Assembly (NCBI GenBank): GCA_964592485.1
Contig: CAZQEY010000010.1
Span: 1 to 50,753 of the forward strand
Source: an uncultured Planctomycetales bacterium
GTDB taxonomy: Bacteria > Omnitrophota > Gorgyraeia > Gygaellales > JAHJCI01
Direction: 5' to 3'
Length of the DNA: 50,753 nucleotides
Positions 3,507 to 49,285 of this stretch are shown one piece after another (position 1 is the stretch's first letter; each line of letters opens with the position of its first letter). Both the position numbers and the translations under genes were made by a program. The notes under the pieces were generated by a model, which was not told the origin of the DNA, made no database searches, and was given only the letters and a program-made list of their open reading frames with translations.

Positions 3507-3552
3507 TTTTGTACCTCCTTTCCTCGCTCCTCCAAGAAAAGAGCAATTTCAT

Positions 3553-3646
3553 ATAACTTAAAATATCCGAATTACTTCGTTTATGCCTCTACATTAGCAC
3601 ATTTTCCGAAGTAATTAATAATTCTCCTTCTAAAACAAAAAAGCAG
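3553..3646. repeat. Copy B of the intergenic repeat; contains a 10 bp perfect inverted repeat (AATTACTTCG/CGAAGTAATT, ~27 nt loop)
   Basis: The same 5' (ATAACTTAAAATA) and 3' (TCTCCTTCTAAAACAAAAAAGCAG) blocks as copy A. Lies between the stop of the 122-aa gene and the Zn-ribbon gene. Confidence 0.7.
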
Positions 3647-10436: not shown

Positions 10437-11210
10437 ATGATTAGGGTAAAAAAGAACTGGTGGAAAGACTTTTTCAATAATATTTATTTAATTACTGATG
10501 CCCGCAGCGTAGGCGATGTTCATCTTACCTGCCGCGAGGTTGATTTATTAGAGAAGGTTTTGCGCTTGGATAAAACTGACCGCATCCTTGATTTATTTGG
10601 CGGGCAGGGGAGGCACTCAATAGAGCTGGCAAAACGCGGCTATCGAGATTTAACCGTGCTTGATTATTCTGATTATTTGATTAATTTAGGAAGGTGCTCA
10701 GCTAAAAAAGAGAATCTCAAGATAAATTTTTATCAGGGCGATGCACGTTCTACTAAACTTGCAAATAGTAATTATTCTGTTATTATCATAATGGCTAATT
10801 CCTTCGGTTATTTCACCAATGAAAGAGAAAATGAAAAAGTATTAAGAGAAGCACACCGGTTACTTAAAACCGGAGGCAGGTTGCTTCTGGATTTGATAAA
10901 TTCTGAACATGTTAAAAATACCCTCAAGCCCACTTCCTGGCATAGAATTGACAATGATATTGATGTGTTTCGAAAAAGAGAAATTAAAAATAACCTGGTT
11001 AAAACCAAGGAGACTGTAATCTCTCAGCGGAAGGGACTGATTAGGGATGGTAGTTATTGCGAGCGCATTTACACCAAAGCAAGAATCTGCCGATTACTTA
11101 AGAAGGTGGGTTTTAAAAATATTAACATAAAAAATAATCTTTCCCTCCATAAAGAAAATCAAGATTATGGTTTGCTTACCTCAAGGATGATTGTTACCGC
11201 AAATAAATGA
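10437..11210 (+). CDS. Class I SAM-dependent methyltransferase
   Basis: Motif I LDLFGGQGRHS; post-I D; motif LLKTGGRLLLD. Confidence 0.8.
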   Translation: MIRVKKNWWKDFFNNIYLITDARSVGDVHLTCREVDLLEKVLRLDKTDRILDLFGGQGRHSIELAKRGYRDLTVLDYSDYLINLGRCSAKKENLKINFYQGDARSTKLANSNYSVIIIMANSFGYFTNERENEKVLREAHRLLKTGGRLLLDLINSEHVKNTLKPTSWHRIDNDIDVFRKREIKNNLVKTKETVISQRKGLIRDGSYCERIYTKARICRLLKKVGFKNINIKNNLSLHKENQDYGLLTSRMIVTANK

Positions 11211-11287
11211 CCCCCCTATCCTTAATAAAGAAAACTAAAATTATGGTTTACTTACCTCAAGGATGATTGTTACCGCGAACAAATAAA
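11161..11287. repeat. Tandem duplication (~48 bp unit, 75 bp period) of the 3' end of the methyltransferase gene, including the stop codon
   Basis: AAGATTATGGTTTGCTTACCTCAAGGATGATTGTTACCGCAAATAAATGA and AAAATTATGGTTTACTTACCTCAAGGATGATTGTTACCGCGAACAAATAA. Confidence 0.9.
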
Positions 11288-13213: not shown

Positions 13214-14656
13214 TTATTTACCTATACAAAATTCACTGAAGATTCTATCCAACAGTCCATCGGAAAAACGCCCACCCAAAATCTCATCTAAAAAACCAAT
13301 TGCCTCTTGGAGGTCCTGGGCGATGAACTCAAAAGGTAAATTCGCATTAGCTGATTTTCTCGCCCGCATAATTGATTTCTTTACCTTTCTAAGTTGCTGA
13401 ATATGCCTTAGATTAGTCACCCATACCGGAGTGTCTGATTTAATTTTACCACTAAATACAAATTGGGCAATTGCTTCTTCCAGCAGGTCGATATTTTTTT
13501 GTTTTTTTGCCGAGACCTGAACAACCTGCGGGAAGCGTTGAGCAATTTTATCGTACTCGATATTCTGCTTCAGGTCTATCTTGTTAATTAAAGCGATAGT
13601 CGGTTTGGAGTTAATCTTGCGCATTAAGACCCTATCTTCATACGATAAATCCCTGCTGCCGTCAAAAACAAGTAAGACCAAATTCGCCTCTCGGATATAG
13701 CGCTGGCTGCGGGAAACTGCCTTTTGTTCGATTAAATCGCCTGGTTCGATTATTCCGGCAGTATCAACAATCCTTATCGGAATGCCCCTAATATCTAAAA
13801 TGTCCTCAATTGTATCGCGGGTGGTCCCCGCAATCGGAGTAACGATTGAACGTTCACATTTTAATAATGCATTTAAAAGCGAGGATTTTCCGACATTGGG
13901 CCTGCCGCAAATAACCACCTTTATGCCTTCACGAAAAACCCTGCCCCTTTTTGAATTCTCCAAGAGAAATTCTAATTGATGATTTATTCGGTCTATACTT
14001 ATAGTGATATTCTTGATATCCACTGCTTCCAAGCCCTCATCGGGAAAATCAATATTTGCCTCCAAGATGGTAAGTAGTTCTAATAATTTATCTCTTAACT
14101 GATTCAACCTTTTTGAGAAATCCCCCTTCAATTGCTCAACGCTTGCCCTTAAGGCAGTATCCGTTTTTGCCCTAATAATATCTAATACTGCCTCAGCCTG
14201 GGTAAGGTCAATCCGACCATTTAAAAAGGCGCGCTTAGTAAATTCTCCCGGATTACTCAAGCGGGCGCCTAAACTTAAAACTAATTCCAGAGTTTTTCTT
14301 AAAGGGATAATCCCCCCGTGACAGTTAATCTCCACAATATCTTCGCGTGTATAACTTTTAGGCCTACGCATCACTGTCAGTATAACCTCATCAACAATAT
14401 CTGATTTTTGTCCGCCTTCATTTAATTTCGGCGAACAACCCGCCGAAGTCTTGACGAAGGCGGGTTGATTTTTCACAATCCATCCGTAATGAGTCGTATA
14501 GGTTTTAAAATTGGAAGGCTTTTGACCATCCTTGGAAACAAAGATCTTATCCGCAATAGTTATTGCCTTACTCCCGCTAATTCTCACAATACCAATGCCT
14601 GACTCACCAACCGGAGTGGAAATTGCCGCAATCGTATCATTTAGATTAAAATTCAT
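13214..14656 (-). CDS. mnmE: tRNA modification GTPase MnmE (TrmE) carrying a ~20 aa in-frame insertion
   Basis: GRPNVGKSSLLNAL, DTAG and C-terminal CIGK. The insertion PAFVKTSAGCSPKLNEGGQKS is encoded by a palindromic element. Confidence 0.95.
   Translation of the reverse strand: MNFNLNDTIAAISTPVGESGIGIVRISGSKAITIADKIFVSKDGQKPSNFKTYTTHYGWIVKNQPAFVKTSAGCSPKLNEGGQKSDIVDEVILTVMRRPKSYTREDIVEINCHGGIIPLRKTLELVLSLGARLSNPGEFTKRAFLNGRIDLTQAEAVLDIIRAKTDTALRASVEQLKGDFSKRLNQLRDKLLELLTILEANIDFPDEGLEAVDIKNITISIDRINHQLEFLLENSKRGRVFREGIKVVICGRPNVGKSSLLNALLKCERSIVTPIAGTTRDTIEDILDIRGIPIRIVDTAGIIEPGDLIEQKAVSRSQRYIREANLVLLVFDGSRDLSYEDRVLMRKINSKPTIALINKIDLKQNIEYDKIAQRFPQVVQVSAKKQKNIDLLEEAIAQFVFSGKIKSDTPVWVTNLRHIQQLRKVKKSIMRARKSANANLPFEFIAQDLQEAIGFLDEILGGRFSDGLLDRIFSEFCIGK
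14412..14464. repeat. GC-rich nested palindromic element inserted in-frame in mnmE
   Basis: Outer arms CCGCCTTC/GAAGGCGG. Inner hairpin TTCGGCG-aacaacc-CGCCGAA. No counterpart in E. coli MnmE. Confidence 0.7.
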
Positions 14657-24109: not shown

Positions 24110-24366
24110 ATAGAAAAAAAGGGATAGTCGCTCTATCCCTTAACTTTAATTCTCCTGGTTTTTCTCAATTTTATTTTCCTTTTCTCAAGAAGATTTATTT
24201 CGCCAAGGTTTTTTAAAAAACCTCGTCGATATCTTCGAGAGTTTTATTCCTCCTTAAAAATTTTTAGAATTTTTTATTCTTATTTAATTTTTATCACAAA
24301 AAAATATATTGTCAAGAAAAATTTATAAAATTTTTCAAAATCTGCAATAAAAATAAAAAGATTTGA

Positions 24367-28627: not shown

Positions 28628-31044
28628 TTCTGCTGAAAAATCATCCTTTCCTTAATCTGAGTTGATATGCCCTCAATAAAGGTTTTAAATTTTAAATATT
28701 CCGAAAGCGCAACATATCTTTTTTTTATCTGGGTTCTCTGTTTAAAGCGAAGATGACCATCTTCAAAGTGGTATTCAACACTTAAATCTAACCAAGGATT
28801 GCTTTCCTGAAAATCAGCCGGTAAATACTTTAACTTAACCCCTCGCGGTAAAACCACATCCAACTCAGCCTCCCGAATACTTGGCATTCCTAAATCAATA
28901 GGATATCGCCGCGATTGTTTTGCAATCACTGAAGTATCCAAAAGCGCCAATTGAGGAAATATCCTTAGATTACCGGCCTTAGTCCAATATTCTCGACCAG
29001 AGAAAGAATAATTCAAGATTACATTCTTATTGAGGTCATCTAAATTCTGGATATCATATTTTATTAACCGGGCAGCGGTGGATACCCCTTGGATTGCCTG
29101 CTTGAGGCTTTCGGAGATTGCCTCTTCGGTAGAGTACTTAAGCCAGAGACGCTGACCCGCATCATATAACCCTGTGGTAGCAACCATCTTTTCTGCCTCG
29201 ATTGTTCCATCAGGACTAATCTCCATTTTAAGAATCTGCCTTAGACTATTATGCTGAGCAGAATAGACAGGCGTTGTTTCAATTTGATAACCAGTATCGG
29301 TAAGGATAAAAATCCTTCTTTGCTGGTCATCGGCCGGCAAATTTCCAAAAGAACAGGTTGAGCAGGTAGGGTCAAGAAAGACCAAATCCTCATCTAACTT
29401 GACTACGGCAATACAATGATTAAAATTAACCGAAGGGAAATCTTCTTCTAAGTCAAGATAATCATCCGTGCCGATTAATACCGGGTAGCTCTCAAGGCCA
29501 ATTTCGCGTAACATTGCAACCAGAAGTATCGCCTGGTCCTTGCAATCGCCATATTTATTAAAAAAGATATCAATTGCTTTATGCGGCTCATACCCCGCCT
29601 GACCATATTCTACGGCAACATAGCGGATATCCTCGGCGCTGAAGTTATAGATTGCTCGCGCCTTATCCAGAATTGTTTCCTTATCCTGGGTTAAATCCTT
29701 GACCTTCTGTTTTATTGCTTGATTTACCTGAATTTTATCTTTGGCTAAATTCCACCACCAGTCATAAATCTCCTGCCAGGAATCAAAGGTAGAAATAAGA
29801 ATAATCGGATTAATCTTTGAATTCGAAGGCATATTTGCCTCAGGAATGATTGCCGGGATATCCTTAAATTCCCAAAGATATTCCTTGTATTCTGAATATT
29901 CTTTTACCACCGGCTCTAACTCTGCCTGGAATTTATTGTAATCTGAATTAAAGATTTTGTAGTGCAGTGGTTTTTCTGCCGGAATAACAAACTTAAAGTT
30001 AGCCTGAATAACCGGCTCGAGTTCCTGCAAATGATAAGAAATAACAAGATCGTCTTCATTAATCAATTGATTGCGATAAATTTTGTATTTATATTCGATA
30101 ATACAACCATGGGTAATCTCAGGGAACGAGATTATCCGTGCCCTGGCATTGCTATAAAGGGGAAAATTTAAATATTTAGAAACATCGCGTATATGGCGGC
30201 TACCCACAGGAACAACCACACCATCCGGCAGAATAGTACGCGCATATTCTAACTCTACCTTTTCATAGGTAGAATCATAACTAATCACAATTTCAGAGAA
30301 ATCCTGTTTACCCCGTTCATTTAAAATCTTAATAAGGAGATGTTCGGAAAAGACAGCCGAATTTTGCAGACTGAGTTCGACCTCTTCATCACAAAACAAG
30401 ATTAACGCTCCGGCATTAGGGTATTTTTCCGGCAGAGGAGCAGCTTTAATTATCTCCTGCAGGCTGGGTGATAAATCCTCTAAACGTAAATTCTCCCCTA
30501 ATCGGGTAATTAACTGGATTCGGTTCTGGGCGCGAGTTCTAAATAGCCCCTCATTAATCTGGCGATAAATATCCAAGGCCTGGTCATAGAGATTGAGCTT
30601 TTCGCAAACCTCTCCGTGATAATACAGAGCTTCACTGTCCGGATTATCTATCTTCTTGAATGCATCCCTTGCCTCGGTAAAATTATTAGTCTTATATAAA
30701 GCAAGGGCACGGTATTTTTTTGCCTCGGGGAGAGTTGTCTCTGATAGGTATTGGCTGGCTAATTCATATTCGGCCTGCTGATAATAAAGCAGGCCCAATT
30801 CGAAATAAGCTTGGTCTAAATCCTTGCCTTGGGCAATCAAGTCCTCGTATTTAGCAATGGCACGTTGGTAATAAGCCCGTGATTGCTTAGTATAATCCCG
30901 CGCTTCATCAAGTTTGCTCTTTTGAGTACAACCAGTTGAAAAATTCAAAATACAAAAAGCAAATATTAAAATGATAGACTGGAATTCAAAATTCTTTAAA
31001 AGATTTTTGATTTTTGATTTTCTATTTATATTTATAATACGCAT
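28624..31044 (-). CDS. Secreted or lipoprotein with N-terminal TPR repeats, a DUF3857-like region and a transglutaminase-like cysteine protease core
   Basis: YGDCKDQAILLVAMLREIGL is a TGase-like Cys motif. Start placed at MRIININ (AAGGAG SD); the ORF-track start lies inside hypD. Signal peptide ILIFAFCILNFSTGC. Confidence 0.7.
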   Translation of the reverse strand: MRIININRKSKIKNLLKNFEFQSIILIFAFCILNFSTGCTQKSKLDEARDYTKQSRAYYQRAIAKYEDLIAQGKDLDQAYFELGLLYYQQAEYELASQYLSETTLPEAKKYRALALYKTNNFTEARDAFKKIDNPDSEALYYHGEVCEKLNLYDQALDIYRQINEGLFRTRAQNRIQLITRLGENLRLEDLSPSLQEIIKAAPLPEKYPNAGALILFCDEEVELSLQNSAVFSEHLLIKILNERGKQDFSEIVISYDSTYEKVELEYARTILPDGVVVPVGSRHIRDVSKYLNFPLYSNARARIISFPEITHGCIIEYKYKIYRNQLINEDDLVISYHLQELEPVIQANFKFVIPAEKPLHYKIFNSDYNKFQAELEPVVKEYSEYKEYLWEFKDIPAIIPEANMPSNSKINPIILISTFDSWQEIYDWWWNLAKDKIQVNQAIKQKVKDLTQDKETILDKARAIYNFSAEDIRYVAVEYGQAGYEPHKAIDIFFNKYGDCKDQAILLVAMLREIGLESYPVLIGTDDYLDLEEDFPSVNFNHCIAVVKLDEDLVFLDPTCSTCSFGNLPADDQQRRIFILTDTGYQIETTPVYSAQHNSLRQILKMEISPDGTIEAEKMVATTGLYDAGQRLWLKYSTEEAISESLKQAIQGVSTAARLIKYDIQNLDDLNKNVILNYSFSGREYWTKAGNLRIFPQLALLDTSVIAKQSRRYPIDLGMPSIREAELDVVLPRGVKLKYLPADFQESNPWLDLSVEYHFEDGHLRFKQRTQIKKRYVALSEYLKFKTFIEGISTQIKERMIFQQK

Positions 31045-32381: not shown

Positions 32382-32522
32382 TTCAATTCGCCCGCCAAAG
32401 TTCTGTGGCGGGCGAATTGAACCCCGCACCTTTTTCCTACGAAGCAACTCTGCACAGTAGAAAGGTGCGGGGTTAATTCCGACTTACAACTTATGTCCTT
32501 TGAATAAACTCAGGACATAAGT
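32382..32522 (-). promoter_or_regulatory. Three consecutive strong hairpins in the hypC leader: a 15 bp TTCAATTCGCCCGCC hairpin, a 14 bp AACCCCGCACCTTT hairpin and an 11 bp ACTTATGTCCT hairpin
   Basis: Perfect inverted repeats at 32382-32421, 32420-32474 and 32489-32522. Confidence 0.7.
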
Positions 32523-32603
32523 TGTGTCGTCATTAAAATTCTATCATATCTGTCTTAAATTATCCAGAAAAGATTGCTTTTGCTTTGCTTGGCTTGAATC
32601 TGG

Positions 32604-35914: not shown

Positions 35915-35999
35915 TGGTGCGCGGGAGGAGATTTGAACTCCTACGGGTTGCCCCACTACCCCCTCAAAGTAGCGTGTCTGCCAGTTCCACCACCCGCGC
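35915..35999 (-). tRNA. tRNA-Leu (anticodon GAG), class II with a long variable arm, CCA encoded
   Basis: Hand-folded. 7 bp acceptor GCGCGGG/CCCGCGC. Anticodon loop UUGAGGG with U33. T-loop TTCAAAT. D-arm GGAACUGGCAGAC is Leu-like. Confidence 0.8.
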
Positions 36000-36008
36000 A
36001 AATTATCA

Positions 36009-36080
36009 CTGCCCCGTCTGGACTCGAACCAGAATACCAAGATCCAGAGTCTTGTGTCCTACCGATTAGACGACAGGGCA
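36009..36080 (-). tRNA. tRNA-Gln (anticodon CUG), U1-A72, G73 discriminator, CCA not encoded
   Basis: Hand-folded. Acceptor UGCCCUG/CGGGGCA. U8. Anticodon loop CUCUGGA. T-arm UCUGG-UUCGAGU-CCAGA. Confidence 0.7.
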
Positions 36081-39997: not shown

Positions 39998-40200
39998 TTA
40001 AAGACCTCAATACAACAATCCGGACAAATTAGCGCACATTGCAAACAACCCAGGCATTCTTGATTATTATCAATAAATTTAACCGGCTTTACCCCGCGGG
40101 AATTCAAGCTGTTATCCAATTTTATCAAACCGCGGGGACAAAAACTAATACAGAGCAAACACCCCTTGCATTTTTCTCGGTCAATAGTTATTCTGGGCAT
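39994..40200 (-). CDS. 2-oxoacid:ferredoxin oxidoreductase delta subunit (2x[4Fe-4S] ferredoxin)
   Basis: Two CxxCxxCxxxCP motifs. Confidence 0.85.
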   Translation of the reverse strand: MPRITIDREKCKGCLLCISFCPRGLIKLDNSLNSRGVKPVKFIDNNQECLGCLQCALICPDCCIEVFK

Positions 40201-42017
40201 GCCTTTATCCTTTCGGCAATACCCTTAGACGTTAATCCGTAATTCTCTAATAATATATCTCGACTACCATGAGGAATAAACTCATCAGGCAATCCCAGCC
40301 GATAAACCGGCCTACCCAAAACCTCCTGCACTGCTGAACCGAATCCGCCACTGGCTATTCCTTCCTCAACAGTAAAAATAATCTTTGTTTTTATGTTATT
40401 TAATAAATCTGCATCCAAAGGCTTAAGAAAGCGGGAATTAATCACTGAGCAAGAAACCCCTTCCTTTTCTAATAAATCCGCTGCCTCCAGGCTGGACAGA
40501 ACCATAGAACCTAAAGCAACTAAACTCACGTCCTTGCCCTCTTTTAAAACCTCTGCCTTACCTAATTGTAAGGGGCTGGCAGCCGGGCCGGCAGACAACA
40601 GGCAATCGGATTTTGGATACCTTATTGCCACCGGCTTATTCAGATTCAAAGCAAACTCAAGCATCTCTTCTAATTCCCGACCATCCTTCGGAGCCATTGT
40701 CACCAAATTAGGGACACTCCTTAGATAAACAAGGTCAAATACGCCTTGATGGGTTACTCCGTCTGCACCGACAATCCCCGCGCGGTCAATTGCTAAAACC
40801 AGACCTAAATTCTGCAGAGCCACCCCTTCAATAATCTGGTCATAAGCCCGCTGGAGAAATGTAGAATAGATTGCTACTACTGGTTTAAGCCCGCCGTGGG
40901 CAAGTCCTATAGCAAAACAGACTGCATGCGACTCTGCGATACCCACATCAAAAAATCTGTCAGGATAAGCATCGCGGAATTTGTCTAAACCTGTGCCTTC
41001 GGGCATAGCGGCAGTAATTGCTACAACACGGGGATTATCCTTGGCTAACTCAACTAATTTATCACTGAAAATCCCTGTATAGGTTTTGACACCAGAATCT
41101 TTCCTGCGGGCTTGACCAGTAGGAATATCAAAAGGAACCGCGCTGTGAAATCTTATTGGCTGCTCCTCTGCTGGAGAATATCCTTTGCCTTTAACAGTTA
41201 CCAGGTGTAACAGGCGCGGGCCAGAAAGTTTAAGGATATTCTTTAAGGCCGGGATAAGTGTCTCAAGGTTATGGCCATCTAAGGGCCCAAAATAACGGAA
41301 TCCTAGTTCCTCAAAGAACATGCCCGGCACAAATAAACCCTTAATTGCCTCTTCAAACTTATCCACTATCTTTAAAATGCGCTGACCCCGAGGAATGCGT
41401 GTCTTTAGTAGATTATCTACTGCATTACGAAAACGGTTATATATCGGCAGCGAAATAATCTTATTAAGATACTTACTCAACGCCCCGGCGTTGGGGGCGA
41501 TGCTCAGTTCGTTTGTATTTAAAATCACCAACAGATTGCATTTCAGCTGTCCGACATTATTCAGACCCTCAAAACAAAGTCCGTTGCTTAAAGAGCCGTC
41601 GCCAATTACGGCAACTGTTTCAACCTGGGGATTGCCTACTGCTAACCCCAGGGCAAGAGATATCGCTGTACCGCTATGCCCGGTAACAAAGACATCGTAG
41701 GCTGACTCTTCAGGATTAGGAAATCCGCTTAAACCCCCGTATTGGCGCAGCGAGGAAAATTGTTTATTTCTGCCGGTTAAGATTTTATGAGTATAAGATT
41801 GGTGACCCACATCCCAAACAATCTTATCTTCAGGCATATTCAAACAATAATGCAAAGCCAGGGTTAATTCTACTACGCCGAGGCTGGAAGCAAGATGTCC
41901 TCCGGTTGAAGCCACCACTTCAATAATGCGTAGACGAACCTCCTCAGCGAGTCTAGAAAGCTGACTGACCTTTAACCTTTTTAGATCCTGGGGCGAATCA
42001 ATCTTTTCCAAATACAT
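40188..42017 (-). CDS. dxs: 1-deoxy-D-xylulose-5-phosphate synthase
   Basis: GHSGTAIS and GDGSLSNG TPP motifs; 609 aa. Confidence 0.95.
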   Translation of the reverse strand: MYLEKIDSPQDLKRLKVSQLSRLAEEVRLRIIEVVASTGGHLASSLGVVELTLALHYCLNMPEDKIVWDVGHQSYTHKILTGRNKQFSSLRQYGGLSGFPNPEESAYDVFVTGHSGTAISLALGLAVGNPQVETVAVIGDGSLSNGLCFEGLNNVGQLKCNLLVILNTNELSIAPNAGALSKYLNKIISLPIYNRFRNAVDNLLKTRIPRGQRILKIVDKFEEAIKGLFVPGMFFEELGFRYFGPLDGHNLETLIPALKNILKLSGPRLLHLVTVKGKGYSPAEEQPIRFHSAVPFDIPTGQARRKDSGVKTYTGIFSDKLVELAKDNPRVVAITAAMPEGTGLDKFRDAYPDRFFDVGIAESHAVCFAIGLAHGGLKPVVAIYSTFLQRAYDQIIEGVALQNLGLVLAIDRAGIVGADGVTHQGVFDLVYLRSVPNLVTMAPKDGRELEEMLEFALNLNKPVAIRYPKSDCLLSAGPAASPLQLGKAEVLKEGKDVSLVALGSMVLSSLEAADLLEKEGVSCSVINSRFLKPLDADLLNNIKTKIIFTVEEGIASGGFGSAVQEVLGRPVYRLGLPDEFIPHGSRDILLENYGLTSKGIAERIKACPE

Positions 42018-42189
42018 AATCTTGATGTTTTACTTTCACCTTTAGTCGCTTTTGAACGAGACTTGCTAAGTGAAGTTCATCTTTAATTCGTCAACTTGAG
42101 AAGTAGTATAGTATAACTTGAGATTATTTTTAACATGACTGCCACTATTAATTTTCTGACTTTCTTCAACTTAACGGATTCAATACAAA

Positions 42190-42380
42190 GTTCACTTAGT
42201 AAGCTAAGCTTATATCCAGCTGAAGGCTGGAGTAAAACATTAATCTCTACTAAATCTTTGGGAGAATCAATCTTTTCCAGATACATAATTTTGTAAGCTA
42301 AGCTTTTATCCAGCGGAAGGCTGGAGCAAAACATTAATCTCTACTAAATTCTTGGGAGAATTAATCTTTTCCGGATATAT
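42190..42380. repeat. Tandem ~93 bp duplication that includes the dxs translation start (MYLEKIDSP) and an upstream CCAGC-TGAAG-GCTGG hairpin
   Basis: Units at 42200-42290 and 42293-42380 plus the native copy at 41990-42020. Creates the artefactual 83-aa ORF 42083-42334. Confidence 0.85.
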
Positions 42381-42615
42381 CTTGATTTTCCTCTTCGGGC
42401 TGGAATTCCTCAGTAATCTCGATTCCTTGTTTTTTTACCAATTTCTCTACTCTTGCCTTTGCCTCTCTTAACATTTTGGAGCAATTCCTGGATAATTCAA
42501 TGCCCTCCTCATATTTCTTAAGTGCTTCATCGAGTGAAAGATTGCCTTCCTCTAAATCCTTAACTATCCTTTCCAATTTTTTTAAAGATTTCTCAAAATC
42601 TATTGTCTTTGACAT
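42361..42615 (-). CDS. xseB: Exodeoxyribonuclease VII small subunit
   Basis: LSLDEALKKYEEGIELSRNC; GGAGGT SD. Confidence 0.9.
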   Translation of the reverse strand: MSKTIDFEKSLKKLERIVKDLEEGNLSLDEALKKYEEGIELSRNCSKMLREAKARVEKLVKKQGIEITEEFQPEEENQDISGKD

Positions 42616-42674
42616 AGGATTTTACCTCCAGTTTATTTTTTACCATAAAGGCTCAAAGTCACAGAGTTTTTTAA

Positions 42675-42790
42675 GAAAACTTTGTAACCACAGATAAACA
42701 CAGGTAAACACTGTTAAATTTTCATAATAAAAATACGAAAGTCTTTTTCTTTCTTCTGTGTTCATCTGTGGTTTATGCTTTCTTATGCTT
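42675..42790. mobile_element. MITE-like element copy 1 with terminal inverted repeats (AACCACAGATAAACAC...GTGTTCATCTGTGGTT), between xseA and xseB
   Basis: Ends are conserved with copy 2 (46289-46405); the internal sequence differs. An extra partial end CCTCTGTGGTT lies at 42827-42842. Confidence 0.7.
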
Positions 42791-42847
42791 TAAGATTTTC
42801 TTTTTCTCTGTGTCCCCTACGTCTCCGTACCTCTGTGGTTTTTTCTT

Positions 42848-44152
42848 CTAAGAATCTATCTGAGTCACTTCAGATTGAAAACTGCCTTTGGCTAATTTTG
42901 TATTTACTCGATCACCCTTTTTAAGGGAACTGGCCTTTAGAATAATCTTGCCATCTATGCTCGTAGTTAAACTGAAGCCGCGAGATAAAATCGCCAGCGG
43001 ATTAAGTGCCTGATATTTTCCGATGACCGCAGCCAGCCTCTGCTCAGTTAAATGAATAAGATGCTGAATTACTAGAGACGCGGAGTGCGTCAAGCTATCG
43101 GTATCCTGCTGAAATTCCTCAATCTTCTGTAATGGATGCTTAAACGCGGGGCTGGTAGAAAGCAGATTGAATCTTTGTTTTAAATCATTGCTTTTTTCTC
43201 TGATTAAGTTAACCAGCAATAACTGGCTCTGCTCCAATAGCTTTAGTATCTCGTTCTTCTTGTTCACAAATAATTTGGCTGCCGCTGTGGGAGTCTCCAC
43301 ACGCAAATCAGCAACTAAATCAGCGATGGTAGTATCGACCTCATGACCTACCGCAGATATAACTGGAATCTTAGAATTAAATATTGCCCGGGCAACAATC
43401 TCTTCATTAAACGCCCAGAGGTCTTCAAGACTGCCGCCCCCTCGGCCAATAATCAAAACATCAACCTGAGAATATTCGTTAAATTCGGCGATGCCTAAAG
43501 CAATATCATATTTCGCCTGTTCACCTTGCACAACCGTTGGCCGCACAACAATGCGTAAGAATTTCACCTCCCTATTTAGGATTTTAAGAATATCCTCGAC
43601 TGCCGCACCGGTTGCTGAGGTAATGATGCCTACGGAAAATGGCATCAGGGGTATGGGTTTTTTACGGGCCACATCGAATAATCCCTCTTTGAATAATTTA
43701 TCTTTGAGTTGCTCAAATGCCAATTGCAAAGAACCAATTCCCTTAGGCTCAATCTTCTCAATGACTACCTGATACTGCCCGCGTTTTCCGTATACAGTAA
43801 TGCGTCCAAAACAAATTACCTTTAACCCATCTTCTAATTTAAATTTTAAAGTCTGATTCACATTCTTAAATAAACAAGCATTAATTATCGCATTTTCATC
43901 TTTGAGGGAAAAATACATATGGCCGGACAAATGATGGGTAAAGTTGGAAATCTCCGCCTCCAGCCAAATTGAAGAAAGGTTATTCTCCAGGATTAATTTT
44001 ATATCCTGGGTTAACTCACTTACCGTATAGATATGTTGAGTCGAATATTTATCTCGCACCTTCCCTTGTAACGGGGCCGCCCGGGAAGATAGAGAAATGC
44101 GGGATTTATCATCTAATTGGGATTGTTTATTTAAATTGATTCGCGTAGGCAT
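42848..44152 (-). CDS. xseA: Exodeoxyribonuclease VII large subunit
   Basis: OB-fold N-terminus IYTVSELT...; length and architecture typical. Confidence 0.9.
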   Translation of the reverse strand: MPTRINLNKQSQLDDKSRISLSSRAAPLQGKVRDKYSTQHIYTVSELTQDIKLILENNLSSIWLEAEISNFTHHLSGHMYFSLKDENAIINACLFKNVNQTLKFKLEDGLKVICFGRITVYGKRGQYQVVIEKIEPKGIGSLQLAFEQLKDKLFKEGLFDVARKKPIPLMPFSVGIITSATGAAVEDILKILNREVKFLRIVVRPTVVQGEQAKYDIALGIAEFNEYSQVDVLIIGRGGGSLEDLWAFNEEIVARAIFNSKIPVISAVGHEVDTTIADLVADLRVETPTAAAKLFVNKKNEILKLLEQSQLLLVNLIREKSNDLKQRFNLLSTSPAFKHPLQKIEEFQQDTDSLTHSASLVIQHLIHLTEQRLAAVIGKYQALNPLAILSRGFSLTTSIDGKIILKASSLKKGDRVNTKLAKGSFQSEVTQIDS

Positions 44153-44478
44153 TCCTGAACAACATTCTCAATTCTTGAGCGGTCGGGTTCTTGGATATCG
44201 ATAAATTCGATTCCCGTATCAAAATTACCCCCTCTTCGAAGCGCCCAAGCAATCCTCCCATTACACTCTATAGGAACTCCTCCATCCTTTAAATAAAGAA
44301 GAATCTCCACAGGACAAGACTGAGGCAATGCCTTGGATAGAACTACGCAAATTCCTCCTGCACCTATATTTTCGGTATGAGTAGAGAAAACATGTTTTAA
44401 ATCACTTCTTAAAACAACAACCTTGCATGGATAATCTGCGCGCGGAAACCGGCGCCTATTAATGCTATTCCGCCTCAT
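44131..44478 (-). CDS. PilZ-domain (c-di-GMP binding) protein
   Basis: RRFPRADYP (RxxxR) and NIGAGGICV (D/NxSxGG-like). Start at MRRNSI, which has an AAGGAG SD. Confidence 0.65.
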   Translation of the reverse strand: MRRNSINRRRFPRADYPCKVVVLRSDLKHVFSTHTENIGAGGICVVLSKALPQSCPVEILLYLKDGGVPIECNGRIAWALRRGGNFDTGIEFIDIQEPDRSRIENVVQECLRESI

Positions 44479-46390
44479 CTTGCCCTGCTCCTTTCTTCTG
44501 GCCTTCATTAGGTTTTTCCCCTATCGGCTCTTCAGGCTTAATCGGGGTTACTTGCTCCGCCTCTTCAACCTCCACAGAGACTTCTGGTTTTTTATCCATC
44601 ACAATCAAGACCACTGAATACGGCTCCAAAATTAAGGTCTCCTTATAGGTAGTAACATCCTTAATCTCTTTTTCTTCTCGCGGCATAAATGCGCAATCCA
44701 ATCGGCAGGATTTATCTACGATATATTTTTTATAGATATAATCATCCTTAAGATTGGTCAAATTTAAATTTATATTCTGAGACTGGGTAATCAAGGATTT
44801 CGCCATTTTATTTAAAGTAATTGCCTCTTCAATCTTTGCCTTTATCCTTTTGTCTAAGCGCAAGGTTTTTAGAGGAATCTCTGAATTTTTAATCCTCTCC
44901 CATTTATCGGAATGTATTAAATTTACCAATATTCTTGCCAATCTGGGGTGCAATTCAGCCAGATGTCGAGAAAGATAATCCCTGGCAAGCCTGGGGTCAA
45001 TATATTTGAACAAAAATAAGGCGAGGCCTGTTTCTGTCTTGGTGGCAATTATGCCGACAAATTCATCATCCAGGCGCGAGGCAATAAACATCTCGCTACC
45101 CAGCATATTGAGCATACTAATTACATTAAACATCGATTTTGCTCCGCCGGTGTATTTGACATGCTCCGACTCAAACCAGAATAAGCCGACATTTCGATTT
45201 ACCCCTTGTTTATTATTTTTAAAATCCTCCAGGCAAAAGAATATTTGATAATCAATGCCTGACTTTAGCATATTCCTTATCCGGCTGGGGATAAAGCTGG
45301 CAGCGACATAAGACTCCCAGCCTCGCTTGGGTTCAAAGTTTAACCCCGTATCGTAGTTCCATTCACTAATAATTAGAGGTATAGTTGAGTCTAGGCCAAA
45401 ATACGAAAGCCATTCGCGAATAAGTTTTGGAACTATATTTTTATAACAGGTAATTTCACTTTCGGCCAATGGGTCGCTGGTATAGGCATGCCAGCTAATA
45501 AAGTCCAGAGGAAGTCCCTGTTGAGAACAGAAGCGAATAAATTCGTAGATAAGGCTTTCTTCGGGATAGAAAACGGTATTGCCTTCCAAATTCTGGAACC
45601 ACCATGTTACTGCCGGGCCGCCGATGCGAATGTCACGGTTAGTCTCTTTTTCTAATTCCTTTACGCTCTGGGCTACTGCTTGATAAATATTGAGATATTC
45701 TTTTTTCTGCCCTAAAAAGAAATCGTCCGAATCCGGAGCGTTCCATATCTCGTACCAGATATCATAACCCTTCTCGCAACTCAAATAGCGGATAATATGC
45801 TTAACCAGCTCCTTGAACGCGCCGATATCCCAGGGGGAACTTTTCTTATCCAAGACCTTACCTAAGCCCGGAGGCATACCATACAAATTCAAAAGAATGA
45901 TTCCTCCAGCCGAATTTATATTTTTAATCACTGTCGAATAGTTTTCCAGAAATTCGGCCTGCATCTCTTTATCCTTAGCCAGTTGGATAAACTCCCAAAG
46001 GTCAAACTGTAAATGAAAAATACCTCCGCTCAAATCAAGACGTTCGTTGAGTTGGGCTAATACTTCGGGCGCAGCCAAGTTCTGCGGCCAGGTCGGCTGA
46101 TAATGAAACCCCCGGCCGCTTAAATCTATGCCTGGCTTTCTAAGAAGATTCGGCGTTGGTTTTGTCTTACCGGTTATATCCAAGTTGAAATCGATATCGT
46201 TACCTTGAGCGAAAGTAAAATCGCCTATAAAATTCAAAATGCAAAATGCAAATATAAGAATAAAAAAACAAAATCCAGATATTTTTAAAAAATCTTTGCA
46301 ACCACAGATAAACACGGGTAAACACTGCTTAGCATAGAGAATGCTATAAATACCGACCGCTTTTCTCCTCTTGTGTTTATCTGTGTTCAT
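44465..46390 (-). CDS. Secreted TIM-barrel glycoside-hydrolase-like protein with an acidic low-complexity C-terminal tail. The N-terminal ~35 codons, including the ATG, are supplied by MITE-like copy 2.
   Basis: IWYEIWNAPD resembles the GH5/GH39 NEP motif region. Signal peptide ILIFAFCILNFIGDFTFAQ. Start uncertain. Confidence 0.55.
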   Translation of the reverse strand: MNTDKHKRRKAVGIYSILYAKQCLPVFICGCKDFLKISGFCFFILIFAFCILNFIGDFTFAQGNDIDFNLDITGKTKPTPNLLRKPGIDLSGRGFHYQPTWPQNLAAPEVLAQLNERLDLSGGIFHLQFDLWEFIQLAKDKEMQAEFLENYSTVIKNINSAGGIILLNLYGMPPGLGKVLDKKSSPWDIGAFKELVKHIIRYLSCEKGYDIWYEIWNAPDSDDFFLGQKKEYLNIYQAVAQSVKELEKETNRDIRIGGPAVTWWFQNLEGNTVFYPEESLIYEFIRFCSQQGLPLDFISWHAYTSDPLAESEITCYKNIVPKLIREWLSYFGLDSTIPLIISEWNYDTGLNFEPKRGWESYVAASFIPSRIRNMLKSGIDYQIFFCLEDFKNNKQGVNRNVGLFWFESEHVKYTGGAKSMFNVISMLNMLGSEMFIASRLDDEFVGIIATKTETGLALFLFKYIDPRLARDYLSRHLAELHPRLARILVNLIHSDKWERIKNSEIPLKTLRLDKRIKAKIEEAITLNKMAKSLITQSQNINLNLTNLKDDYIYKKYIVDKSCRLDCAFMPREEKEIKDVTTYKETLILEPYSVVLIVMDKKPEVSVEVEEAEQVTPIKPEEPIGEKPNEGQKKGAGQDEAE

Positions 46391-46405
46391 CTGTGGTTTA
46401 TGCTT
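46289..46405. mobile_element. MITE-like element copy 2 (same termini as copy 1), overlapping the 5' end of the GH-like ORF
   Basis: AACCACAGATAAACACGGGTAAACACTG...GTGTTTATCTGTGTTCATCTGTGGTTTATGC. Confidence 0.7.
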
Positions 46406-46429
46406 TTAATTGGAACCTTGATATACGAA

Positions 46430-48885: not shown

Positions 48886-49057
48886 TTTATCAAAACCTCC
48901 TTTCCTTATTATAAACTGAGATTGAATTTTAAGCAAGCCCCGTTAGGAATTTTTATTTGACGTATTAGCAAGCAGTATTTCTAACGGGAGTCTAGTTATA
49001 ACTTTTTATTAACCTTTGGAATTCAGTTGAAACAATAAAGAGGAGATCTTTGTCCAA

Positions 49058-49285
49058 GCTTTAGCCTCAGCTAAAGTCAGGTATTGTTTCGGGCTGAACT
49101 TCGATTGAGACTAAACTTTGATCAAAGGCTTTGCTCAAACTCCAGCCTCAGCTAAAGCGCTGCTTTAAGCTTAAACTTCAGTCAAGACTAAACTTTGATC
49201 AAAGGCTTTGCTCAAACTTTAACCTCAGCTAAAGTAAAATATTGTTTTAGGCTGAACTTTGGTTGAGGCTAAACTTTGATCAAAG
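49058..49285. repeat. About 3 tandem copies of a 68-83 bp unit, each containing palindromes CTTTAGCCTCAGCTAAAG and CTTTGATCAAAG, in the long rny leader
   Basis: CTTTGATCAAAG at 49116, 49193 and 49274. CCTCAGCTAAAG occurs three times. Confidence 0.8.

Follow-up and report, generated by a model that had tools for sequence, protein, structure and literature searches.

Dxs, 1-deoxy-D-xylulose-5-phosphate synthase, is the first, or entry, enzyme of the MEP isoprenoid pathway, and in E. coli K-12 its gene belongs to a contiguous xseB-ispA-dxs operon. The sampled Omnitrophota resemble this operon in having xseB and dxs in the same orientation and in one cluster, but they differ from it in that ispA is absent and xseB is joined directly to dxs. 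The attachment (att) sites of prophages and islands duplicate gene ends, for instance those of e14 and phage 21 in the 3' end of the E. coli icd gene. There, as in front of the dxs gene described here, gene-end direct repeats flank an insert, the gene is left intact, and the differences between the copies are mostly synonymous. On the contrary, our locus involves a 5' end and a two-gene overlap, its insert of ~0.3 kb carries no integrase, and no other instance of this insert is known. Tandem duplications produced by slippage or unequal crossing-over offer another likeness, i.e., two head-to-tail 94-nt units, 90% identical and without indels. Here, however, a third copy lies 174 nt of unrelated sequence away and shares only 43 nt, so that a single slippage event does not account for all of it. 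A segment of the insert (U, see below) recalls MITEs and REP-like intergenic hairpin elements by its small size, its AT-rich, non-coding sequence, and its inverted arms; moreover, a neighboring spacer contains a dispersed hairpin element, R. U differs from them in that we found neither further copies of it nor a short target-site duplication. Finally, overlapping gene pairs can be coupled by termination-reinitiation (PMC6728339, PMC10666635), and this coupling is reportedly nearly abolished at an intergenic distance of ~20 nt (PMC10666635). The relatives of our organism are comparable to such pairs, with xseB/dxs overlaps of 11 or 20 nt or gaps of 0-10 nt, whereas in our genome the two genes are 343 nt apart, a separation at which coupling reportedly fails.

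We analyzed a stretch of 50.7 kb, hereafter the window, from a Candidatus Omnitrophota MAG. Between xseB and dxs, the window carries three copies (A, B, and C) of a block that we call J (junction block), together with two further segments, X and U. The features are as follows, in the reading direction of the genes:

Positions 42848-44152, minus strand: xseA.
Positions 42361-42615, minus strand: xseB, the exonuclease VII small subunit, 84 aa (Pfam PF02609, E=5e-20; from the ORF list and the junction alignment).
Positions 42345-42387, minus strand: copy A of J, 70% identical to the dxs start.
Positions 42290-42383, minus strand: tandem unit A, 94 nt, made of J_A and X_A (period 94 in Tandem Repeats Finder; 90% identical to unit B).
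Positions 42309-42325, minus strand: hairpin in X_A, UCCAGC CUUCC GCUGGA (-12.7 kcal/mol in its 36-nt context, z=-4.2).
Positions 42251-42293, minus strand: copy B of J, 43 nt, 86% identical to the dxs start.
Positions 42196-42289, minus strand: tandem unit B, 94 nt, made of J_B (ATG at 42284-42286 intact) and X_B, head to tail with unit A.
Positions 42215-42231, minus strand: hairpin in X_B, UCCAGC CUUCA GCUGGA (-11 kcal/mol, z=-2.95).
Positions 42083-42334, minus strand: orphan ORF of 83 aa (67 aa from the MYLEK ATG at 42286), Dxs-like at residues 17-33 only.
Positions 42025-42198, minus strand: segment U, unique and AT-rich (~31% GC in the GC profile), the new leader upstream of dxs.
Positions 41982-42024, minus strand: copy C of J, comprising the working start of dxs (ATG at 42015-42017) and the 7 nt in front of it.
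Positions 40188-42017, minus strand: dxs, 609 aa, full length (PF13292, PF02779, PF02780).

The encoded Dxs is 84% identical to its nearest homologue over 100% coverage. In front of the gene, Tandem Repeats Finder detects an array at 42199-42377 (period 94, 1.9 copies, 91% matches, no indels), whose score of 309 is by far the top among the 43 rows obtained for the window. A repeat search aligns 42196-42286 with 42290-42380 (91-nt copies, 90% identical), and in a BLAST of the window against itself, A matches B with an E-value of 1.3e-28 and B matches C with one of 6.7e-07. Copy B carries ATGTATCTGGAAAAGATTGATTC, while the dxs start reads ATGTATTTGGAAAAGATTGATTC and copy A reads ATATATCCGGAAAAGATTAATTC. 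An earlier note on this DNA had described a duplicated dxs initiation region with a unit of ~93 bp present two to three times; this description holds, in the form of two 94-nt units plus a third, 43-nt copy, with J present at all three positions listed above.

The same note had allowed for an assembly artefact, in which a single copy would have been falsely expanded. The source is a short-read metagenome assembly, which speaks for such an artefact, but an assembler could hardly mistake copies as diverged as these for one another. Indeed, the longest exact runs that they share are of 22 nt (A-B), 16 nt (B-C), and 10 nt (A-C), and none of the 25-mers or 31-mers of 41900-42500 recurs anywhere in the window. 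Since the copies share no k-mer of at least 23 nt, each of them, and each novel junction as well, needs its own supporting reads. Moreover, a Logan assembly of 1684 nt (L001, run SRR14802574) spans xseB, the 83-aa ORF, and the dxs start, and gives the same sequence: it aligns with the window without gaps and is identical across all three copies, all 10 mismatches being located far inside dxs. L001 is the same strain's copy of the locus, and the two assemblies possibly derive from one sample; our sample of the structure is one strain, seen in the window and in L001. Judged from these comparisons, an assembly artefact is very unlikely, and the dxs-start repeat is genuine genomic sequence.

The Dxs sequences closest to ours (84-56% identity) belong to Omnitrophota or to MAGs mislabelled 'Planctomycetales'. 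We compared 14 xseB-bearing Omnitrophota loci (L002-L009, L013, L014, and L082-L085), the Dxs of which are 56-84% identical to ours. In 14 out of 14, xseB directly abuts or overlaps dxs: the overlap is of 11 nt in L002, L003, L005, and L083 and of 20 nt in L004, and the other nine loci show a gap of 0-10 nt (1 nt in L082, L084, and L085). The 20-nt overlap of L004 is the one preserved in copy A. None of these 14 loci carries the dxs-start repeat or any insertion at the junction, and no second copy of a locus's own dxs start was found among the 84 dxs loci examined. Likewise, we found no closer relative with an intermediate state, the clusters of XseB, of Dxs, and of the 83-aa ORF each containing this sequence only, with the next Dxs at 84%. 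Since no second dxs start occurs in the 84 loci and the protein clusters hold only this organism, the insertion is, as far as these loci and clusters tell, specific to this species-level lineage.

The comparison also bears on ispA. In 18 non-Omnitrophota loci, ispA lies directly upstream of dxs; this and the E. coli operon speak for the scar left by deletion or rearrangement of ispA that had been proposed. However, an IspA-like gene is found within ~5 kb of dxs in none of the 17 Omnitrophota loci (0/17), nor anywhere in the whole 50.7-kb window; xseB and dxs are joined without any repeat in 14 loci, and the insert has no similarity to IspA. Thus, ispA is indeed missing here, as had been noticed, but a local rearrangement removing it does not fit relatives that are also devoid of it. 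The absence of ispA from all 17 loci indicates that it is old and clade-wide and that the repeat is a later, separate event, so that a scar of ispA deletion is extremely unlikely. In the three others of these 17 loci, which are more distant (L010-L012, Dxs 55-57% identical), xseA and xseB are both absent, and a PilZ gene stands directly before dxs, in the order RNase Y - YmdB - PilZ - dxs. From this gene order, the xseAB pair appears to be a variable cassette in a conserved neighborhood.

Copy A encodes the final 7 codons of xseB and its stop codon, in agreement with the initial view of a degenerate copy forming the 3' end of this gene. The stop codon TAA (42361-42363) falls on +18..+20 of the former dxs frame, the same position as the TAA of L004, and the former dxs ATG is now ATA (42378-42380). 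Copy A reads ...GAGGAAAATCAAG|ATATATCCGGAAAAGATTAATTC, its counterpart in the relatives being ...GAGGAAAATYARG|ATGTATCTKGARAAGATTAATTC, and it aligns gaplessly with the junctions of the relatives, from the xseB 3' end into dxs-like sequence. In an nhmmer search with a profile of these junctions, copy A is matched contiguously, from xseB into the dxs-like part, ending at ~+55; in copy B, the match is confined to the stretch between a point just ahead of the ATG and ~+43. This gapless alignment, along with a TAA placed as in L004, identifies copy A as the original xseB/dxs junction, whose ATG has become ATA.

Copies B and C share the 7-nt upstream flank CAA(A/G)ATT and 31 of their first 36 coding nt, and over these 36 nt J_B is identical to the dxs start of L084 at 33 positions. 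At +7 and +24, copies A and B agree with the relatives and copy C differs, both changes being synonymous. B and C otherwise differ at a third synonymous site and in one codon, K or Q, which is variable among the relatives too. Polarized by the relatives at +7 and +24, these changes support a copy B that has barely changed and a copy C that has evolved as a functional coding sequence. Copy A is the most changed of the three; its stop has been kept in the xseB frame, with TAA where B and C read TGA. The ATT before the ATG and the G at +19 are present in B and C and absent from A and from all relatives, and X is common to A and B.

X consists of the ~50 nt that follow J and contains the hairpin. 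The homology of copies A and B to dxs fades between ~+38 and +55: identity is 86% over the first 36 coding nt, then ~40%, and X compared in register with dxs +37..+97 has 24 identical positions out of 61, vs. 15.8 expected (p about 0.02). The drop is sharp, yet the residual ~40% is slightly above chance, so that the breakpoint and the origin of X are only partly clear; on the other hand, the first 36 nt of B are nearly intact, which argues against X being decayed dxs. U holds an imperfect inverted repeat, with 38-nt arms at 42062-42099 and 42166-42203 that are 76% matched and fold with z-scores of -1.4 and -2.1. We also considered, and rejected, U and the 83-aa ORF as decayed dxs: the in-register identity of U is 27%, i.e., chance, and nhmmer with the relatives' profile finds nothing in U, while BLASTP matches the ORF at residues 17-33 only and local DNA alignment past +40 stays at the level of shuffled sequences. 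Outside L001, which is the same locus, neither X nor U was found elsewhere in the window or in the collected loci; two scans of JGI metagenomes for X and U gave 0 hits, and IMG/VR gave 0 hits for X. The 54 single IMG/VR hits to a U-arm pattern with 14 specified bases correspond to chance, none of them extending beyond 17-25 nt.

The 83-aa ORF begins with MFCSSLPLDKSLAYKI (MFCSS...). A repeat copy is fused there to unrelated sequence, as had been recognized, although MYLEKIDSP is not where the ORF starts: MYLEK appears only at residue 17, with its ATG at 42284-42286. The ORF belongs to no Pfam family, and its sole match among 5.8 billion proteins is itself, which fits the earlier description of an artefactual ORF, a by-product of the repeat. 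As for the hairpins, the motif CCAGC-N5-GCTGG occurs in the window in the two units only, against 0.02 matches expected by chance, and X_A and X_B differ in it at one base, located in the loop. According to our calculation, the chance that 11 mismatches in 94 nt all miss the 12 stem bases is ~0.2, and hence the intact stems are not evidence of selection. When read on the minus strand, each unit has its hairpin downstream of its ATG, and the hairpin nearest to the real dxs ATG is ~200 nt upstream of it. The hairpin had been placed upstream of the start and described as containing the RBS; in fact, it follows the ATG within the unit, the real dxs ATG has no hairpin nearby, and there is no Shine-Dalgarno-like (SD-like) sequence inside the X hairpins. 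They do not resemble intrinsic terminators either: after the 6-bp stem comes AUAUAAGC or AUAAAAGC, with no U tract, and a terminator scan returned 0 terminators.

In the predicted fold, the intact ATG of copy B is unpaired, and the dxs ATG (copy C) lies in an unpaired A/U-rich stretch; the whole 361-nt leader folds somewhat better than shuffled sequences (z=-2.3). Rfam, searched over the whole window at the gathering threshold and over 41900-42900 at E<=10, gives nothing at the repeat, the best score being 15.9 bits vs. a gathering score of 88. The promoter scan stays at chance level (3 promoter-like hits vs. 2.5 expected). An SD-like motif precedes only 17 of the 43 ORFs of the window, and its absence before dxs is thus uninformative. 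With coupling nearly lost at ~20 nt and a gap of 343 nt here, the ancestral termination-reinitiation coupling of dxs to xseB was likely lost, and dxs would now initiate alone, from a leader predicted to be unstructured and A/U-rich.

Relative to the ancestral junction, the net gain is 363 nt (94 + 269), which leaves 343 nt between xseB and dxs. We favor the reading that this structure is a lineage-specific insertion and duplication scar at an ancestrally overlapping xseB/dxs junction, ordinary in kind, which we hold to be probable. In the ancestor, as in the relatives living today, the xseB stop was located at or within the first dxs codons, the two genes sharing the junction block J. A first step would have placed ~215-230 nt of AT-rich, non-coding DNA (X and U) in the junction and duplicated J (~-7..+38) on both sides, the upstream J copy keeping the xseB tail and stop and the downstream one keeping the dxs start. 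In a second step, the 94-nt J+X segment would have been duplicated in tandem, giving copies A and B. A third step would be one of divergence: copy A, fused to xseB, would have lost its ATG and kept the xseB-frame stop; copy B, nearly unchanged, would open a meaningless ORF; and copy C would have remained the working dxs start. We infer that the events took place in this order, i.e., J around the insert, then the tandem duplication, then divergence. This two-step history requires that copy A subsequently lost 3 nt (an in-frame deletion) and changed TGA into TAA; either this took place, or the ATT and G shared by B and C reflect recombination of the J copies with each other.

The main rival, which we consider unlikely, takes the same repeats for the remnant of a site-specific integrative element, or for a miniature one, with the xseB/dxs junction as its attachment site. 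In that case, J_A would correspond to attL, J_B to an internal attP-like site, and J_C to attR, with X+U as either the residue of the element or a non-autonomous element mobilisable in cis. Direct repeats of ~45 nt that flank an insert and rebuild both gene ends are a classic att signature. Copy B, moreover, is mosaic in structure: upstream, it has the 7-nt flank and ATT of C, and downstream, the X of A. If the J copies recombined, this C-type left flank and A-type right flank would resemble an internal att site. J_B also resembles the start of dxs in L084 (33/36) more than the resident one (31/36), and where it differs from C, the change is synonymous or swaps K and Q, a natural variant, which would suit descent from a functional dxs allele. 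However, duplication in situ with purifying selection on copy C gives the same pattern, and no integrase was found among the 25 window ORFs scanned against Pfam, the insert itself containing no ORF of a Pfam family. The insert is only ~0.3 kb, the gene order on both sides is that of the relatives, with syntenic housekeeping genes as neighbors, X and U are absent from the JGI metagenomes, IMG/VR, and the collected loci, and no relative has an insertion here. A narrower version, in which J is the att site of a miniature non-autonomous element that carries surrogate xseB 3' and dxs 5' ends and a leader whose decoy start and hairpins set Dxs translation, appears improbable to a degree that makes it little more than a suggestion. 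About as improbable is a MITE-like insertion, in which U, with or without X, would be a small non-autonomous transposable element with terminal inverted repeats. The AT-rich, non-coding character of U and its 38-nt imperfect inverted arms near the ends fit this, as does the presence in the same operon of another lineage-specific hairpin element, R, which occupies the xseA-xseB spacer and has a second copy 3.6 kb away. Against it, no search returned a second copy of U or X, no short target-site duplication adjoins the arms, whose flanking bases differ, the arms are only 76% complementary with a modest fold z-score, and the sequences of U and R are unrelated. Target duplications of 45 nt are, moreover, not known from any transposase.

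Selection for a function could also have shaped the region: the copy B start, as a decoy or an upstream ORF, and the X hairpins would form a functional dxs leader tuning Dxs translation or mRNA stability. We regard this as rather improbable. In its favor, the ATG of copy B is intact and its first 12 Dxs codons have hardly changed, neither unit has a broken hairpin stem, the one differing base being in the loop, copy A has lost the ATG that adjoined the ancestral SD-like GAGGA in xseB, and the 361-nt leader has the fold z-score given above. On the other hand, there is no conservation beyond one strain and no Rfam match, no SD precedes copy B, no terminator/antiterminator pair is present, stems are expected to stay intact by chance at the ~0.2 computed above, and 14 relatives do without such a leader. 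The 83-aa ORF ends 65 nt before the dxs ATG and is thus not coupled to it. Nor does the region look like a leader-peptide attenuator, with an orphan ORF, no terminator called, and no coupling to the dxs start. We infer that the repeat has no dedicated function.

The spacer on the other side of xseB also departs from the relatives. Between xseA and xseB, 232 nt are found here vs. 22-54 nt in L084 and L085, and the spacer is filled by the hairpin element R, which is present at 42654-42781 and at 46269-46406 on the minus strand (~75% identical over 139 nt), the second copy standing at the ymdB/GH39 boundary. The R core, AAAGCATAAACCACAGATGAACACAG...CTGTGTTTATCTGTGGTT, forms an 18-bp stem, and the region 42640-42800 (minus strand) that contains R folds at -45.5 kcal/mol (z=-6.1); R has no Rfam match. 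A relationship between U and R was considered and discarded, as they share no sequence. The 18-mer of the R core, AACCACAGATGAACACAG, which is a repeated decamer (ACAGATGAAC/ACAGATAAAC), has exact matches in 11 IMG/VR contigs (L141-L151; e.g., L147 at 13385-13494, L146, and L145). It is present in multiple copies in several of them, L147 having an inverted pair, and in L144, L149, and L150 it is found in sense orientation ~55-105 nt upstream of a candidate ORF start. We regard it as a candidate promoter, leader, or protein-binding motif of wide distribution; nothing relevant to it came out of a literature search. The listed ATG (MNTDKHK...) of the GH39-family ORF at 44465-46390 lies inside the R motif at 46371-46391, and the other R copy likewise contains the start of a 41-aa ORF (MNTEERK..., 42640-42765); hence, the start codon of the GH39 gene may be mis-assigned.

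Other boundaries in the window also carry lineage-specific repeats. A 76-nt tandem duplication at 11144-11284 (88-90% identity) is a second duplicated gene end: a SAM-methyltransferase ORF (10437-11210) ends, stop codon included, within its first copy. At 49048-49285, in the spacer between the genes for 5-formyltetrahydrofolate cyclo-ligase and RNase Y, a unit of ~80 nt is repeated in tandem about three times (73-89% identity), with many internal palindromes (CTTTGATCAAAG). BLAST of the window against itself further reveals palindromes and short dispersed repeats at 32382-32421, 32473-32536, and 24197-24232, at 3546-3646 vs. 2844-2905, and at 46229-46298 vs. 30940-31009. The only Rfam matches at the gathering threshold in the window are two adjacent tRNA genes (35918-36080, minus strand). 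Judging from the window, small duplications and insertions seem to arise commonly at the gene boundaries of this genome, and these other boundary duplications fit the ordinary origin that we propose for the dxs-start repeat.

For annotation, the 83-aa ORF at 42083-42334 should not be annotated as a gene, the C-terminus of XseB is to be read as the old overlap with dxs, and the missing ispA is a trait of the clade; beyond this, the locus has little import. If the leader were regulatory, it would bear on the control of Dxs. At an overlapping gene junction, a DNA insertion is possible only if the overlap is duplicated, and this locus is a tidy example of it. Of its two spare start codons, one was lost and one was kept.
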